From the IMG/VR virus record IMGVR_UViG_3300026549_000051, positions 1-64,000 of that record: a stretch of 64,000 nucleotides of DNA, one strand, 5' to 3'. The notes beneath the pieces are model-generated. The model was not told where the DNA came from and ran no database searches. It was given only the letters and a program-made list of their open reading frames with translations. A program made the translations under genes and the position numbers. Source of the DNA: a virus (Duplodnaviria; Caudoviricetes). This document shows, piece after piece, positions 1,846 to 61,379 of the stretch; positions within the stretch are counted from its first letter, which is position 1; every line of letters begins with the position of its first letter.

Positions 1846-3588
1846 ATGGAGGGCGCGGTTTTACAGGGAGCACAGCCACTCACACCAGAGCAGATGCAGG
1901 AGCTTTTCAGCAAGATGCTGCAGACCAATGATGCAGAGCGGCTGGCCCAAGCTAAAGATAATGGCTTCACTAAGAGTGACTTTCAGCAAGAGAAGGTCAA
2001 GGAATATATATATTCTGAGTATGACTTCGTGAGGGTACGGAATGTGGGGCAATTTGGGACTATCTATTATTTGCCCAAGGATGGGGGGAGTGCTCACGAG
2101 CTTAAGGACGTGGATGCTCTTAAGATTGTGAGAGAGGCCTATATGCACATGTTTAATATGGCGCCGGCTAGCAAAATGCAGGCAACTATTGATACACTTA
2201 AGATGGGGGTGAGCAATGAGGTCGAGTCTATTAATAACGAGGTGGTGCGAGTGGCGGACACTCTTTACTGGGACACTAGAGATGGGAGGTTGACAGAAAC
2301 CCCGACTAGCATGTGCATGAGGGAGCTTTTTGATTCTCGTGGCACGCGCGAGATTAAGATTGACATTAATGACGTGCATGCGCCATTTATTATGTCGGCT
2401 CACCGCAAGATTGTGAGGGTGCTAGAAGAGACGGATGGACTTATTGAGCCGGGCGACCCTAAGTTTGACGTGCTTGGGTATACCGCGGAGCATCCTGTGT
2501 TTAAGACTTTTATGACATGGGCCAATAACGACTTGGACACATTTAACGATTTACTGAAGGCGACAGCGACTAACTTTATGTATAACAAGCCCAAGGGGGC
2601 ATTTGTGCTTATTGGTCTTAAGCGCAACGGCAAGTCGACTTACATAAAATTGCTACATGCGCTTTTTGGAAGAAATAACACATCTAGTGTCAGGCTTTCT
2701 GACTTTAATAACCATGGCTTAAATGGTGAGCTGTGGACCACTATGATGAATGCGCCGGACGAAGAGGATGAAGGTAGGGGCAAAGACCTGCTGGAGGCCC
2801 AGGGCAATTTTAAGAGCATAGCGGCTCACGAGAGTCTGAAGTTGCGCAAGCTATATGAGCAGAATGGTCAATGGGTCAACTCTGACTTTATGTGCTTCTT
2901 TCCTATGAACCATTTTCCAGAGTGGAAGGGGAATGGTGCGGCGGCCTGCATGCACAGGACATTACCTCTGTTTTTCAACAATGACCTCAGTAAGTACGAT
3001 AATAACGGCAAAGACTTTGCGACTGAGACTTACACATCAGGATTTTTCGAGACTTTTATCCCACTGATTTTGGCTATTGCTACATATTATCATGACAGGC
3101 CGATTAGCTTCTCTAATAAGATGAAACAAGACCAAGAGAAGGTTGCCGAAGAGGTGGATAACATATCTCTGTATCTTGACCGATTCAAGAGCTGGTTCAA
3201 CGGATACAAGAGCAAGAAGTTGGTCTACGAGGATTACAAGCTTTGGTGCCAAGAGAGAGACTTGCGCTGGCAGGAACGCTCAGTGTTTAACCATACCATA
3301 GAGATGCGAGGGCCAAAGCCAACTTCGTTTATTGACGGCGAACAGAAGATAAACGTCTATCGTCTGGGGGATAGACCTGGCAACGACTACTTCTATGAAG
3401 AATATGTGGTTAAACAGCTGAAATACCGCTCGGTCGGAGAGATTATTACGACTGATACAGAGAAGAAGCGCACGGAGCGAAGTGTGATAGCTATGCTTGA
3501 TGAGCTGAAGGATGCTGAGGACAACGAACCATTGGCCACTTCTACGCCAGAAGAAATACAAATGGACTTAGAAGAGATTGGGTGGTAG
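1846..3588 (+). CDS. D5/P4-type superfamily 3 helicase (no primase domain recognised)
   Basis: Walker A GLKRNGKST, NAPDE Walker B, FPMNHFP motif C. Confidence 0.85.
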   Translation: MEGAVLQGAQPLTPEQMQELFSKMLQTNDAERLAQAKDNGFTKSDFQQEKVKEYIYSEYDFVRVRNVGQFGTIYYLPKDGGSAHELKDVDALKIVREAYMHMFNMAPASKMQATIDTLKMGVSNEVESINNEVVRVADTLYWDTRDGRLTETPTSMCMRELFDSRGTREIKIDINDVHAPFIMSAHRKIVRVLEETDGLIEPGDPKFDVLGYTAEHPVFKTFMTWANNDLDTFNDLLKATATNFMYNKPKGAFVLIGLKRNGKSTYIKLLHALFGRNNTSSVRLSDFNNHGLNGELWTTMMNAPDEEDEGRGKDLLEAQGNFKSIAAHESLKLRKLYEQNGQWVNSDFMCFFPMNHFPEWKGNGAAACMHRTLPLFFNNDLSKYDNNGKDFATETYTSGFFETFIPLILAIATYYHDRPISFSNKMKQDQEKVAEEVDNISLYLDRFKSWFNGYKSKKLVYEDYKLWCQERDLRWQERSVFNHTIEMRGPKPTSFIDGEQKINVYRLGDRPGNDYFYEEYVVKQLKYRSVGEIITTDTEKKRTERSVIAMLDELKDAEDNEPLATSTPEEIQMDLEEIGW

Positions 3589-3590
3589 GT

Positions 3591-4049
3591 ATGGATAATT
3601 TAGCTGATAAAATCATCCAAGCTAACGAACAAGAGACAATGCGCAAGGGCAGTGACGACACTGCTCCAGAGGGGTATTACACTGACGACATGGGGATGTG
3701 GGTGGAGCAAGACATCCGCAAGAGCCCCAGTCGTTTCGCGGAGTATGTGTTTGTGCGCTGCCGGAAGCGCAACGAGCATTTATATTATGACACCGACTCA
3801 CTGACGCTATTTAACAGGCACAGAGAGATTATGCCTACCCAAAGGGATATAATCGAGTTAGCGAATCTGCCTGACACGATTTCAACAGCTCAGGCGATAT
3901 GGGTTCATAACAAACTCAAAGAGACCGTCCCTAGGTTGGATAAGAATCGGATAATCATTGCACCGGGGCTAGCCTGGGACATAGAGAAATCGGAGATTGT
4001 TGAGATAAAAGGAAAATATTATACTGTAGGAGGTGAAGATGAGCAGTAG
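3591..4049 (+). CDS. hypothetical protein resembling the helicase N-terminal domain
   Basis: Homologue at 60642; C-terminal IIIAPGLAWD resembles helicase VVRVADTLYWD. Confidence 0.7.
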   Translation: MDNLADKIIQANEQETMRKGSDDTAPEGYYTDDMGMWVEQDIRKSPSRFAEYVFVRCRKRNEHLYYDTDSLTLFNRHREIMPTQRDIIELANLPDTISTAQAIWVHNKLKETVPRLDKNRIIIAPGLAWDIEKSEIVEIKGKYYTVGGEDEQ

Positions 4050-4338
4050 CACGCCAGAGGGGAATTTTAAGAAGAGTTTTTGTTCTAGGTTGAGGAAGCT
4101 CGGATGCACCGTATTCCAGAATCAAGGGGTTGGAGTGCCGCGCGGATTCCCGGATACCTCTGTGCTCTTGCCAGAGGGGCTAACTATTTATATAGAGTTC
4201 AAGGCAAGCAAGCGAGCAAAGTTTCAGCCACTACAGAAGGAGTGGATCAAGAAATTAAATGAAAGGAACTTCTTTGCCTGGGTCTGTTACCCAGAAGTAT
4301 CAGACAAGATCATGGGCGAGATTAGGCGTCTATTATAA
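4039..4338 (+). CDS. VRR-NUC domain nuclease
   Basis: PE-x-x-F, GFPD, IYIEFK, PLQKEW PD-(D/E)xK motifs. Confidence 0.85.
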   Translation: MSSSTPEGNFKKSFCSRLRKLGCTVFQNQGVGVPRGFPDTSVLLPEGLTIYIEFKASKRAKFQPLQKEWIKKLNERNFFAWVCYPEVSDKIMGEIRRLL

Positions 4339-4363
4339 TATCCATGCTATAATTGGTTATGTT

Positions 4364-5029
4364 ATGGATAAAACCTTCAAAAATAAGATTTTGAACCTTC
4401 CGAGGTATACCGGAAAGAAGGTGTCGGAGCATTCGCTATATAGGTGTTGGGCATCTATGAAGAATAGATGTTACAACAAAAACGACAAAAAGAATTATAT
4501 ATGGTATGGTGGCCGCGGAATTAAGGTGTGCGATAGGTGGATCGGCGAAAATGGTTTTTGGAATTTCGTAGACGACATGGGGCCACGGCCGGACGGATGC
4601 TCTCTTGACCGCATAGACCCGAATGGGGACTATACACCAGAGAATTGCAGATGGGCGACGGCTAAAGAGCAGGCTGACAATAGAAGAACGTCATTAAAAT
4701 CGTATATGAATGGGGAATTAGTCACCCCGGCCGAGATGAGCAAGATAACCGGGCTAAATATCGCGACAATAAGGAAAAAGATTAGGGATGGGATGTCTGG
4801 AGATGACATCTCTCTAGTGAAGTCGTCCGGCAAGCCGAGAGGAGTCGTTTGTGTTGAGACCGGAGAGGTATTCAATAGTATTGCAGAGGCCGCGGAGGCT
4901 CATGGAATGAAAGCCCCGACTAGCATTAGTTCTGTTTTGGCGGGTAGAGCCCACAGCGCCTATGGGTTACATTGGAGATATGCAGAAAACGCCGACGAAA
5001 TAATGGGGGAAATAAGGAGGCTCTTATGA
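4364..5029 (+). CDS. HNH homing endonuclease with C-terminal NUMOD-like DNA-binding region
   Basis: W-x-SMKNRC...YGGRGIKVCDRW...LDRIDPNGDYTPENCRWAT; absent from unit 2. Confidence 0.85.
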   Translation: MDKTFKNKILNLPRYTGKKVSEHSLYRCWASMKNRCYNKNDKKNYIWYGGRGIKVCDRWIGENGFWNFVDDMGPRPDGCSLDRIDPNGDYTPENCRWATAKEQADNRRTSLKSYMNGELVTPAEMSKITGLNIATIRKKIRDGMSGDDISLVKSSGKPRGVVCVETGEVFNSIAEAAEAHGMKAPTSISSVLAGRAHSAYGLHWRYAENADEIMGEIRRLL

Positions 5030-5217
5030 GCAAGGGGGATAAATTACTATTAGCCGCAATTATAATATGTGGAGTGATAGCAGCTCTAATTTGGTTTATT
5101 ATTGGTAAAGCAGTGGAGCTGCTTTTTACTGGAAGCATCCGCACGCTCTGTTTTGGGCTGTCGGTGTTTGCCATTGTTTTAGTTGTTGTGTGTTGTATTG
5201 GAGCGAGAAATGAATGA
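5026..5217 (+). CDS. small two-TM membrane protein
   Basis: Two hydrophobic segments; AGGAGG RBS; ATGA overlap. Confidence 0.7.
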   Translation: MSKGDKLLLAAIIICGVIAALIWFIIGKAVELLFTGSIRTLCFGLSVFAIVLVVVCCIGARNE

Positions 5218-5482
5218 GTTTTTAGTAGTATGTAAATGTTCGGGGGTAAAAGAGAAGGCAGAAGCCGCATATAAGATTATGCGGCCAAAAGCCGAGCTCC
5301 CACCAGTGTATAAGGGGAAGGACGCCATCGTCAGCCTGGCTAATCAGTATAGTGGCACCGACTTTGGGGGATACCTTTTAGCGATTAGCAAGAAGAACGG
5401 ACGATACGCCTATCATCTGGGGGAGAGTGGCGGAGAGGTAGCATTAAGCTACGATTTAATAAAAGGAAAGAAGGTGGCATAA
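5210..5482 (+). CDS. CxC-motif protein A (possible thioredoxin-like fold)
   Basis: VVCKCSG; homologue 61376 keeps CTC. Confidence 0.7.
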   Translation: MNEFLVVCKCSGVKEKAEAAYKIMRPKAELPPVYKGKDAIVSLANQYSGTDFGGYLLAISKKNGRYAYHLGESGGEVALSYDLIKGKKVA

Positions 5483-35243: not shown

Positions 35244-35575
35244 TCGCCAAGGTCAATCTTGAGTTCTGCCGCAAAGCGACGAATCTCACGCCTTAGACGC
35301 TCAATATCAAGCTCGGAGTAATAGAACTCTCCGAGCTTTTTGAGATACACATTCTTCTTACGAATCATATCGTTCGAGATAATCTCTTGATCGATGCAGT
35401 CTAAAAACGCTCCGCCTACATCCATATTCTTTGCCTCATAGACGATGAGACTCTTAATATAAGAGGCATTAGTGAGCACTCTTTTAATGTTTGCGACAGA
35501 AAAAACGGACACAATATGTGCCGCCAGCACCCGATACGGGTCGTCATACTCTTTGTGTTTGCCTATACACCCCAT
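35240..35575 (-). CDS. hypothetical protein
   Basis: AGGAGG RBS inside HNH-AP2 tail. Confidence 0.7.
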   Translation of the reverse strand: MGCIGKHKEYDDPYRVLAAHIVSVFSVANIKRVLTNASYIKSLIVYEAKNMDVGGAFLDCIDQEIISNDMIRKKNVYLKKLGEFYYSELDIERLRREIRRFAAELKIDLGD

Positions 35576-36114
35576 GAGCTTCTACTCCTCCTATCTATCT
35601 CTGAGCCATACAACTGCTTTTCTAGTTCCTTTCTCTTTTTTATGGCGTCATCTACATTATTAAAATATCCAGTATACTGAAACTTTTCCTTGAGTTTTAT
35701 CGTTACCTCCCAAGTGTCGTACGTTCCACCTGTTTTTTTATTCCTCACCCTCCTAACTCCAGGGTATGGTCTATTTTCTTTTGCAGATTTTCGCCTACTA
35801 CGATTAGCGGAGTTTAGACTGTACGAGACCTCTCTAAGGTTTTCTCTGCGATTATCTAATTTATTTCTATTTATGTGGTCTATCACCATACCTTTATCTG
35901 GTTTCTTATAGACAACATGGTGTAGAGAGATATTTTTTGTTTTCCCGTTCTCTTTTACCGACTTTATAGCGTAACCGTGTGAGTCTAATCTCCAGCTATT
36001 CATTTCTACTTTGTACACATCATCAGCAGATACAAGAGCGTACCCTTGTTTTGCGTTTTCGCCTAGCGGGACAAACCCAACACCGTCTTTTATAATAATA
36101 GCCCTAGCCTTCAT
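35563..36114 (-). CDS. HNH-AP2 homing endonuclease
   Basis: IDHINRNKLDNRRENLR plus AP2-like YPGVR...W...GYF...A...R. Confidence 0.9.
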   Translation of the reverse strand: MKARAIIIKDGVGFVPLGENAKQGYALVSADDVYKVEMNSWRLDSHGYAIKSVKENGKTKNISLHHVVYKKPDKGMVIDHINRNKLDNRRENLREVSYSLNSANRSRRKSAKENRPYPGVRRVRNKKTGGTYDTWEVTIKLKEKFQYTGYFNNVDDAIKKRKELEKQLYGSEIDRRSRSSWGV

Positions 36115-36425
36115 AAACCCCAAGACCCCCTTCGCCGTCTACTCCCTCTCCTGCGAGAGTTCTCTTTTTTACCGCGGTTTGTTTTGCGGGAAACCACCCG
36201 AAGGTTACTTGAGACGTTGTGCCTAGGGTTACTATCTTTATGGTCGATATCTTTTCCGTCGCCCTTATGCACTCTGCCAGATTTGAGGGCTGAGCGTCGG
36301 GCGGAGTTGCGAGACGCACGCTCCGCCTTAGCTTTTGCCGAGCTTTGGAACTTCTCGTATTCGTGCTTAACGCCAGCAGCCGTGCGCTTGCGTTTGCCGT
36401 TTACTGTAACCCAAAGCCTGCCCAC
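36111..36425 (-). CDS. small basic HNH protein
   Basis: DIDHKDSNP...NLRVVSRKTNR. Confidence 0.8.
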   Translation of the reverse strand: MGRLWVTVNGKRKRTAAGVKHEYEKFQSSAKAKAERASRNSARRSALKSGRVHKGDGKDIDHKDSNPRHNVSSNLRVVSRKTNRGKKENSRRRGSRRRRGSWGL

Positions 36426-48203: not shown

Positions 48204-48863
48204 CTATTTTCCTTCAGTCAATTCCTCCTCCAATTTCTTGCACCAGTTCTTCTCCGAGAAGTCTGACTTGCCTTTTAAACAGGCGTAGATGTCATCTTCG
48301 ATAGTTCCCACCGACTTTTGTCTTTTGTAGGCGTCTCGCTTCTGCTTGAGCCTAGCATTATGGCGGCACTCATCGCTACAATATTTTGTTGTACCACTTG
48401 GGACAAATTCTTCGCCACAGAAACTGCAACGCGGATAATCGCCAGCTTTTATACGCTTATATGTTTTGGTGTACTTATAGCCATTATTTTTAAGCGACCT
48501 CCTATTTACCTCCCTTCTCCCATTAAGTCTACACTCGCTACTGCAATATGTATTATGTTTCTCATATGGAACAAATTTTTTTCCACAGAAACAACAGTAA
48601 GCTGTTCTTTTGACATACGGTGCTCTAATAGGCTCGTTATTTGCATGCCATTTCTTATGGCACTTCACGCAAAGCCAGGAAACTTCCAGAGGTTTATTAT
48701 AATCGTTATGGTGTGCTTCCACTTTCTCAGTAGAGCCACAGCATTCACACGGCATCTTAGCCATTGTCCCAGACTTAATCGCCTTACGGACTAATGAGTG
48801 AGCCCTGTGCTCAGCCCTGAACTTCATATATTGATCATGCGTTTTCTCTTGTTCTGTCTTCAT
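48204..48863 (-). CDS. HNH homing endonuclease with zinc-finger repeats, fused to a helicase-like C-terminus
   Basis: CECCG...EAHHNDY...WLCVKCH; CxxCG-x-x-F...YCS-x-ECR x2. Confidence 0.85.
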   Translation of the reverse strand: MKTEQEKTHDQYMKFRAEHRAHSLVRKAIKSGTMAKMPCECCGSTEKVEAHHNDYNKPLEVSWLCVKCHKKWHANNEPIRAPYVKRTAYCCFCGKKFVPYEKHNTYCSSECRLNGRREVNRRSLKNNGYKYTKTYKRIKAGDYPRCSFCGEEFVPSGTTKYCSDECRHNARLKQKRDAYKRQKSVGTIEDDIYACLKGKSDFSEKNWCKKLEEELTEGK

Positions 48864-50067
48864 TTTGACACCACACTTTCTCCGAAAAATCTTGCTTATT
48901 CTTTAAGCACCTCATAATATCCTTTTCTATTGTATCACAACAATAACAGTAGTAGAAGAACATCGGCTTAGTTTGCCCGATACGCTTAATGCGACCGCGT
49001 GCCTGTAATGATGTGCTATATGAGTAATTCGGCGATACCGAGCACCAGTAGTGCATGAACTGTAAGTTCAACGCTTCGCCACCACTAGCGTAGTGAGCGA
49101 CCACGATGTCATATTTGCCTATCGTATCAGGTGTAGGTATCTCATGGTGCTTACCATCAATTCGCCATATCTTCGTCCCCTTAGGCAGAGCCTTCTTGGC
49201 TATTTCGCAAACCACCTCTTCCTCTTCAATGTAATTACAGAAGAAGACGCAGTTATCGCCCAGCCCCTCGATGAACTCCGACAGCCACTCTTGCTTCTCC
49301 TTAGTGAAGCATATCTGCCTGAGGTAATGGCACAAGCCCATCGTGGTTTCGATGAACTCGCCATCCTCTTTGGTGCGGGTCTTCATAATCTTGCGATAGT
49401 TCTTTGGGGCTTTGAACTCAACCACCTTATGTGTTTCCTTTGGCAACTCCCTGAACATCTGAGAGGCATCAGGCGTGGTAACAATGTCATCCCACATCTT
49501 CTTCAACTCATCGACCCTTACATAGTGGTCTATCTCTGGGAAGCCTCGGTATGTATGGACTATGGCATAATTATTCATAAAGTCCGTCTTGTGCTTGACC
49601 TTCCCACACACTGTAAAGTATGTAATAAAGTCTTTCCAGTCGTCCCCAGGCGTGGCTGTGTAGCCAGTCCATACTGTGCAATGGTCGCAGATACGACGGA
49701 AGCCATACCCCATACCAGTCGTATATCCCTTGCACTTCTGCACCTCATCGAACGCGAAGGCATAATTGCCGAGTCGTAATAGAGGCAACTGCAATGAATA
49801 TTTATCCAGCTTGTGCCACGAGATTACCTCAAAACTTTCAAGACTGTCGAGCCATTCCTGACCGTTCCATAGCACGGCTTCCTTCTGCATATCACCTGAC
49901 CTAGCCTTAGTGGCTGTTGTAACGATTACAACACGCTTCCTGCCAGTATCTCTCAGCCAGTTAAACATCACGGCAGTCTTACCTGCACCAGTTGGCAGAA
50001 TGCAAATGCGACTCCCAGCGTCAAGATCGGCAACAGCCTGCTCTTGGAACTTATACAGGCTAGGCAT
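48835..50067 (-). CDS. SF2 (SNF2-like) helicase
   Basis: PTGAGKT, DEVQ, TATP, EALNLQ, QARGRIKRIGQ. Confidence 0.92.
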   Translation of the reverse strand: MPSLYKFQEQAVADLDAGSRICILPTGAGKTAVMFNWLRDTGRKRVVIVTTATKARSGDMQKEAVLWNGQEWLDSLESFEVISWHKLDKYSLQLPLLRLGNYAFAFDEVQKCKGYTTGMGYGFRRICDHCTVWTGYTATPGDDWKDFITYFTVCGKVKHKTDFMNNYAIVHTYRGFPEIDHYVRVDELKKMWDDIVTTPDASQMFRELPKETHKVVEFKAPKNYRKIMKTRTKEDGEFIETTMGLCHYLRQICFTKEKQEWLSEFIEGLGDNCVFFCNYIEEEEVVCEIAKKALPKGTKIWRIDGKHHEIPTPDTIGKYDIVVAHYASGGEALNLQFMHYWCSVSPNYSYSTSLQARGRIKRIGQTKPMFFYYCYCCDTIEKDIMRCLKNKQDFSEKVWCQNEDRTRENA

Positions 50068-61085: not shown

Positions 61086-61379
61086 ATGTTGGAGAGAGAT
61101 TTTAAGAAGAATTTTCAGAAGAGACTAAAGAAAGAAGTGAAGCCGTTGGCGATTTTACAATATAAACAGGACGCCACGACAGTTGCTGGCTTTCCTGATA
61201 CCCTGGTGATACTTGAAGGTATAACGATTTTTATAGAGTACAAAAAGAGCAAGACGGCTAAATTCCGTCCCGGGCAGAAGGAGTGGAATGCGAAACTCAA
61301 TGAGAATGGTCACTTTGCCTTTATCTGTTACCCGGAGAACGCAGATAAGATTATCGAGGAGATAAAGAGGATAGCATGA
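61086..61379 (+). CDS. VRR-NUC domain nuclease (HNH-free allele)
   Basis: GFPD, FIEYK, PGQKEW. Confidence 0.85.
   Translation: MLERDFKKNFQKRLKKEVKPLAILQYKQDATTVAGFPDTLVILEGITIFIEYKKSKTAKFRPGQKEWNAKLNENGHFAFICYPENADKIIEEIKRIA

Follow-up and report, generated by a model that had tools for sequence, protein, structure and literature searches.

An HNH-type homing endonuclease gene that probably occupies the 3' end of a phage VRR-NUC gene as an intron-free gene-end replacement cassette

The stretch of phage DNA analysed here (hereafter the window) is the first 64 kb of an IMG/VR record of 111,102 bp. In it a VRR-NUC gene is followed by an open reading frame (ORF) for an HNH-like endonuclease, and the two end in similar peptides, YPEVSDKIMGEIRRLL for VRR-NUC (to 4338) and YAENADEIMGEIRRLL for the endonuclease (stop at 5029), which raises the question of which is the original end of the VRR-NUC gene and how the gene came to have two. 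The statements made about the sequence of this locus in an original prediction, according to which the endonuclease gene had captured the VRR-NUC C-terminus and supplied a recoded one, were all borne out on re-reading. The VRR-NUC assignment lies above the Pfam gathering cut-off for PF08774 (30.4 bits vs 23.8), and the conserved start of the endonuclease ORF is ATG 4364 rather than 4259, its relatives P0097 and P0098 beginning at the same MDKT. We consider it likely that a free-standing homing endonuclease gene of the HNH type has been placed in the 3' end of the VRR-NUC gene as part of an intron-free, gene-end replacement cassette. The features concerned are listed in Table 1.

Table 1. Coordinates of the VRR-NUC locus, its neighbours and the two further endonuclease genes of the window.
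Feature	Position	Strand	Remarks
DUF5906-type primase/helicase gene	1846-3588		unit 1
155-aa gene	3582-4049		unit 1
VRR-NUC gene	GTG 4033 or ATG 4039 to 4338	+	PF08774, E=4.5e-7
Resident VRR-NUC body to insertion point	4039-4296 (alternative GTG start 4033)	+	0/258 mismatches to empty alleles
CAGAA, upstream copy of the 5-nt junction microhomology	4292-4296	+	repeated at 4983-4987
Inserted cassette, 691 bp: replacement tail, spacer, HNH ORF	4297-4987	+	absent from L088-L095
Cassette-borne replacement VRR-NUC tail, VSDKIMGEIRRLL + TAA	4297-4338	+	15/42 nt differ from empty alleles
Spacer, 25 nt	4339-4363	+	between VRR-NUC stop and HNH ATG
Putative extended -10 TGCTATAAT in spacer	4345-4353	+	sequence reading; 10 nt 5' of ATG 4364
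HNH-like homing endonuclease ORF, 221 aa	4364-5029	+	phrog_3377 match
Displaced resident VRR-NUC tail, NADEIMGEIRRLL + TGA	4988-5029	+	42/42 to empty alleles; HNH C-terminus
63-aa predicted membrane protein gene	5026-5217	+	ATG overlaps HNH-ORF stop
HNH_3 endonuclease gene, second case	35563-36123	-	PF13392, E=3.8e-10
Zinc-ribbon HNH-type endonuclease gene, third case	48204-48863	-	phrog_2340, phrog_1271
Unit-2 VRR-NUC, HNH-free allele, diverged lineage	61086-61379	+	ATGA-coupled to next gene

The record (G000) consists of two syntenic, diverged phage genomes in head-to-tail order; unit 1 occupies about 1-57 kb and unit 2 about 58-111 kb, with proteins that are 33-95% identical between the units and with one block in inverted orientation (40.3-42.3 kb vs 82.0-83.9 kb). 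Contigs assembled from its relatives are about 53-62 kb long, and the two-unit record may represent either a tandem arrangement or a chimeric assembly. All three of the endonuclease sites described below are empty in unit 2, whose tail-fibre region also contains, outside the window (89169-89620), tandem repeats of about 81 nt with copies 83-86% identical. The VRR-NUC allele of unit 2 ends in YPENADKIIEEIKRIA*. The genomic context given in the original prediction needs correction with regard to the next gene, the 63-aa gene, which has no homologue in unit 2. Only 9% of the sequence found a match at 70% identity in the phage GenBank collection, which contained no annotated close relative, and four VRR-NUC loci were found in IMG/VR, the closest of them no nearer than 78%.

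The two ends can be told apart by comparison with relatives that do not carry the endonuclease. A protein search with VRR-NUC resulted in 95 relatives, the three closest of which (94-97% identity) end in NADEIMGEIRRLL, that is in the tail now fused to the endonuclease and not in the present tail of VRR-NUC. The contigs encoding P0001 (L088-L095) lack the HNH gene. The window shows no mismatches over the 258 nt from 4039 to 4296 when compared with the empty alleles L088, L090, L092 and L095, and its HNH-fused tail (4988-5029) is identical at 42/42 nt to L088, L089, L092, L095 and L111, whereas the upstream tail (4297-4338) differs from the empty alleles at 15 of 42 nt and at 3 of 13 residues. 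Eight empty alleles agree with the HNH-fused copy in 41-42 positions out of 42 and with the upstream copy in 27, showing that the copy borne by the endonuclease is the original tail, as had been predicted; the reverse pattern, with empty alleles nearer to the upstream copy, was looked for, and the opposite was found. At the protein level the HNH tail is identical at 13/13 residues to the VRR-NUC tails of P0001-P0003, while 600 random 13-mers taken from HNH proteins reach at most 5/13, so that the match is not due to chance.

Homology to the empty alleles resumes at 4983 and CAGAA stands at each of the two junctions, which delimits the insert to the 691 bp from 4297 to 4987, and when it is removed in silico no mismatches to L088, L092 and L095 remain from -300 to +150 around the junction. 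The locus thus presents the presence or absence of a gene at a fixed site between identical flanks, with L088-L095 empty, as is characteristic of free-standing homing genes, and also the pattern of co-conversion, in which the tail directly beside the ORF is foreign and the neighbouring 258 nt are those of the empty alleles. Two direct 42-nt copies flanking an insert, with a CAGAA microhomology at the junctions, could also be expected if the 3' end of the gene had undergone local tandem duplication (by target-site duplication or slippage) at the insertion of an unrelated gene, the copies then diverging in place. This we consider very improbable: all 15 differences lie in the upstream copy, there being none in the adjacent 258 nt or in the downstream 42 nt, and divergence in place cannot be so localised or so one-sided. 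Moreover, other phage lineages show the same cassette layout with HNH genes that are no more than 48-67% identical.

Both allelic states are also found in public sequencing runs. A 19-kb contig from manure (run X5) skips 4292-4982, i.e., 691 nt, the joint 4291 to 4983 being ambiguous by five letters, and an exact skip of 691 nt is present in contigs of both X5 and X3. In the latter run, from bovine gut and belonging to another study, the filled contig (4267-5020) has a depth of 71 and the empty joint a depth of 81, against about 160 for the common flanks, so both alleles coexist in one sample. The filled allele was found at about 97% identity in run X2, from gut in a third study; run X1 is probably the source sample of the record and is not independent.

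The way in which the cassette is fitted into the gene accounts for the two ends. Insertion took place directly after VRR-NUC codon Glu-86 (GAA 4294-4296), 13 codons before the end of the gene, and the cassette carries 13 codons and a TAA of its own (4297-4338; the upstream tail copy reads GTATCAGAC...), so VRR-NUC stays full length, as a protein of the 99-residue type. Residues 1 to about 208 of the HNH ORF are cassette-borne, and its last 13 codons and stop are those of the resident tail: the ORF has no stop of its own, runs into the resident tail in the tail's original frame (frame 0) and terminates at the resident TGA (5027-5029), and the Shine-Dalgarno sequence and the TGA/ATG overlap of the downstream gene are therefore left intact. 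This agrees with the original prediction that the old tail keeps the AGGAGG ribosome-binding site (5015-5020) and the ATGA coupling (ATG 5026) for the next gene, and the 63-aa gene lies directly 3' of VRR-NUC, with the same ATGA overlap, in the empty alleles L088-L095. On direct reading, one of the two other frames of the resident tail contains a TAA and the other enters the frame of the next gene; frame 0 alone ends at the tail's native stop. The RR codons of the replacement tail are AGG CGT, so the original Shine-Dalgarno sequence is lost in that copy.

This arrangement also bears on whether the insert could be a group I intron or an intein with an HNH ORF, spliced out to rejoin VRR-NUC and its downstream tail. 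HNH enzymes of the I-HmuI type are classically intron-encoded, and the downstream tail does lie in the frame of VRR-NUC if the empty allele is taken as reference. No Rfam intron model, however, matched anywhere in 3900-5400, even at E<=1, only 25 of the 691 nt are non-coding, and the VRR-NUC tail is complete with its stop ahead of the ORF; the HNH ORF, furthermore, is not read in the frame of the VRR-NUC body, which excludes an intein. We therefore give almost no credence to splicing, and the insertion was rightly described as intron-free in the original prediction.

The 25-nt spacer (4339-4363) contains an exact extended -10, TGNTATAAT, and no Shine-Dalgarno sequence, and in the cassette of L096 and L098, whose HNH protein is 67% identical, TGATATAAT is found in the spacer at an equal distance from its ATG. 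The same TGNTATAAT stands exactly 10 nt 5' of the ATG in both the spacer of L096 (2473-2500) and that of the window (4345-4353), and a Shine-Dalgarno sequence is present in neither. A scan of the window spacer for consensus promoters and terminators made no call, because there is no -35. Read in this way, the spacers suggest that the endonuclease cassette may have its own promoter and a nearly leaderless mRNA.

The endonuclease belongs to a very large family (3471 matches at E<=1e-10), 120 listed members of which were used for the tail and motif counts given here; an exact look-up of the 221-aa protein gave no match. In more distant relatives that share this C-terminal DNA-binding module, the protein stops 1-5 residues beyond a G-x-[HY]-W-x-Y motif, and the solved domain 8b6e ends at the same point; judged by these natural ends, a tail of the VRR-NUC type is foreign to the endonuclease. 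Among the relatives listed, the 20 closest (48-67% identity) all have 12-18 extra residues of the VRR-NUC-tail type, and the tail of each close relative resembles that of a different VRR-NUC lineage (P0097 that of L005, P0103 that of P0092 and P0100 that of P0094). A known VRR-NUC tail is matched at 7/13 residues or better by 13 of the 120 listed relatives, nearly all of these being among the closest, with a null maximum of 5/13. The order VRR-NUC, spacer, HNH, overlap and next gene recurs in L096, L098, L099 and L100, and the filled allele L096 and the empty allele L005 have the insertion point in common in a background of about 90% identity. With VRR-NUC tails and the same site recurring throughout it, this clade is thus a long-standing specialist of the VRR-NUC site.

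Some further relatives are built differently. A more distant one, P0149 (294 aa), combines a VRR-NUC domain (PF08774) and an HNH of this type in one predicted protein, either through loss of the upstream stop or as a true gene fusion. P0122, P0132, P0133 and P0147 (186-200 aa) align with only 56-64% of the length of the window endonuclease and end in VRR-NUC-like tails such as NWEETKKELESML; more than one endonuclease architecture may therefore make use of the VRR-NUC site.

Whether the protein is still a nuclease is a separate question. It matches phrog_3377, 'HNH endonuclease', with E=2.3e-49, PHROG names being annotations rather than tested functions, and has no match to a Pfam HNH family at E<=10. 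An AlphaFold2 model (mean pLDDT 80) contains a beta-beta-alpha core (strands 80-83 and 95-98, helix 100-109), its best fold match is I-HmuI (1u3e, E=6e-5, probability 1.00), and the C-terminal DNA-binding module matches 8b6e (E=5.6e-6). In a weak alignment (hhalign E=0.08) chained through the HNH_3 protein of the window, the catalytic D74-H75 of I-HmuI corresponds to D82-R83, the His being replaced by Arg, and the metal ligand Asn-96 corresponds to Gln-103. Arg-83 is invariant in 22/22 close relatives, and of the 120 listed family members 110 have the D-R motif and none has D-H; over residues 82-108 (window 4607-4687) the family reads D-R...N...Q, compared with D-H...N...N in I-HmuI. A further feature of the family is a conserved additional segment at the N-terminus, in which H23, C28, C36 and C56 are near-invariant and may bind zinc.

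These substitutions are what could be expected if the element were a decayed or domesticated one, which arose by homing but whose protein no longer cuts and is now a passenger or has a DNA-binding or regulatory role, the element spreading through ordinary recombination or by means of another nuclease acting in trans. Both the predominance of D-R over D-H and the missing Pfam HNH match fit such decay, and mobilisation in trans has a precedent in T4, where mobE mobilises the defunct endonuclease gene I-TevIII according to the available text of that report (PMC2790892). On the other hand, the ORF is undisrupted, and 36 alignment columns do not vary among relatives of 40-67% identity, which places the endonuclease protein under purifying selection; the size of the family is likewise difficult to reconcile with decay, and the finding of filled and empty alleles with otherwise identical flanks in one sample suggests recent gain or loss. 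We regard decay as unlikely, if less so than duplication or splicing, and we infer the nuclease activity of the HNH-like protein from its mobility.

The replacement tail differs from the resident one in an unusual manner. The two tails of the window have 27 of 42 nt and 10 of 13 residues in common, and within the shared IMGEIRRLL six of nine codons differ, all synonymously (7 nt), exactly as first reported; when seven random substitutions were made in this segment, all were synonymous in none of 200,000 trials. Compared with the resident tail, natural VRR-NUC lineages show 11-21 differences in 42 nt and have 4-8 of the 13 residues in common with it (7-8 in the three nearest). By this comparison of tails, the nucleotide divergence of the cassette tail is no greater than that of a foreign allele would be, and its protein match is unusually good. 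As the divergence of 15/42 is within the natural range, a diverged donor may be all that is needed to account for the tail. Its origin may accordingly lie in a donor lineage whose tail had this peptide or in selection for differences in spelling, both of which fit the data; an exact search of IMG/VR with 26 nt of the cassette tail gave no match, and no candidate donor lineage for it was found there. The same pattern is known from fungal mitochondrial gene hybrids, in which the copies are about 64% identical in nucleotide and 91% in amino-acid sequence (PMC3630166). The recoding may also, as originally proposed, make the target immune.

If the cassette is indeed a homing element, its spread could be envisaged as follows. 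During mixed infection the endonuclease would nick or cut cassette-free alleles near the VRR-NUC site, and recombinational repair from a cassette-bearing genome would copy the cassette in, the VRR-NUC body on one side and the resident tail with the downstream genes on the other serving as homology arms. The cassette tail would descend from the VRR-NUC tail of another lineage, and its 15/42 divergence would both remove the contiguous target at the upstream junction and leave direct repeats with too little identity for the element to be looped out. The downstream junction retains the whole 3' half of the target together with CAGAA, and therefore an enzyme reading only the downstream sequence would still find a site in its own genome.

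Two further endonuclease genes of the window, from families different from the first and from each other, show the same logic. The HNH_3 gene ends in 30 nt (35563-35592) that constitute the resident tail of the gene upstream of it (36111-36425): with L101, L105 and L106 as empty and L102 and L103 as filled alleles, the HNH-fused copy is identical to the empty alleles at 30/30 nt and the copy on the host gene has 13 mismatches in its last 36 nt. The third ORF reads into the resident tail of a helicase gene (48835-50067), empty alleles being L108 and L110 and filled ones L107 and L109; here the HNH-fused copy matches the empty alleles at 106/114 nt, whereas the helicase's own tail has only 65 identities, in a gapped alignment. 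The claim of one pattern occurring three times with three HNH families, at 35563 and 48204 in addition to the VRR-NUC site, is thus upheld by empty alleles at both additional sites.

More tentatively, gene-end replacement might be a general route by which homing genes enter packed phage operons, with the differences in spelling kept by selection and the D-R...N...Q branch being active, a wider reading that we regard as possible rather than probable. The resident gene end, read in its original frame, would in each case serve as the stop for the incoming ORF, so preserving the ribosome-binding site and coupling of the next gene; the spelling differences would have been selected against self-cleavage and against loss through recombination between repeats; and the many His-Me finger nucleases that form the D-R...N...Q branch would be homing enzymes active through a non-canonical site.

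The closest known counterparts are the mORF gene hybrids of fungal mitochondria, described for atp6 of Allomyces macrogynus, atp6, atp9, cox2 and nad3 of Glomus sp., atp9 of Rhizopus oryzae and cox2 of Mortierella verticillata (PMC3630166), which confirms the precedent cited in the original prediction for C-terminus duplication by homing endonucleases. In these hybrids a foreign C-terminal segment 5' of the endonuclease ORF completes the host gene, and the native C-terminus is displaced downstream and is identical or nearly identical to that of relatives without the ORF (PMC3630166). The inserted segment completes the host gene in the phage as well, and at all three sites the native end is the one nearer to ORF-less relatives (42/42 vs 27/42 for VRR-NUC). 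The differences are that the fungal elements reside in an organelle and carry LAGLIDADG or GIY-YIG ORFs, that the duplicated segment in the phage is much shorter (42 nt) and that the displaced end in the phage supplies a Shine-Dalgarno sequence and a stop/start overlap to the next gene in a densely packed operon. Coming from a phage record and having an HNH-like ORF, the locus therefore works like an mORF hybrid yet falls outside the described set, and the element is a phage, HNH-type form of a kind of mobile element known from fungal mitochondria.

Among phage elements, SegF, SegG and MobE of T4-like phages are likewise free-standing, variably present among close relatives, spread together with flanking markers and, in the part of the review available, described as having no recognisable ribosome-binding site of their own (PMC2988022). 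They differ in lying between genes or overlapping the upstream gene, and the same part of that review mentions no duplication, no replacement copy of a gene end and no ORF running into a displaced end (PMC2988022). I-HmuI of the Bacillus phage SPO1 (PDB 1u3e) has in common with the window protein a beta-beta-alpha core followed by small helical DNA-binding modules ending in a motif of the G-x-H-W-x-Y type; it is intron-encoded with D-H...N...N, whereas the window protein has D-R...N...Q, a conserved additional segment some 60 residues long at its N-terminus, and no match to a Pfam HNH model. In nrdA of Aeh1, as Friedrich et al. reportedly found in 2007, the host protein is divided between two polypeptides, which reassemble, unlike VRR-NUC, which remains whole because a spare copy of its gene end is supplied. 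The mobE insertion in that gene ('genes in pieces') is similar in that an HNH gene has been inserted without an intron and the phage gene still functions (Friedrich et al. 2007, cited in PMC8351571). No description of the gene-end-replacement layout in phages was found in the literature covered, most subscription journals being outside that coverage.

An arrangement of this kind allows a selfish endonuclease gene to enter a phage coding sequence within an overlapping operon at a cost near zero, needing neither an intron nor an intein nor a split gene. It is also of practical importance for annotation: an endonuclease whose C-terminus duplicates that of the gene upstream is the mark of a homing site, of the former end of that gene and of a likely recombination boundary, and gene-end replacement explains both puzzling short duplications and endonuclease ORFs that seem overlong. 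With filled and empty alleles that have identical flanks co-circulating in the cattle gut, and with three independent cases in a genome of about 57 kb, the locus lends itself well to tests of target recognition, of self-immunity and of what carriage of the element costs.

A recombination boundary at the insertion site was sought in the cassette-free genomes and the idea was dropped, L111 and L088 differing instead in a patch 60-240 nt upstream and not at the site. Runs X2 and X3 hold a different 92-nt segment in place of the 89 nt at 4072-4162, and in this region L111 differs from L088, yet their tails are identical; the middle of the VRR-NUC gene behaves as a swappable patch.
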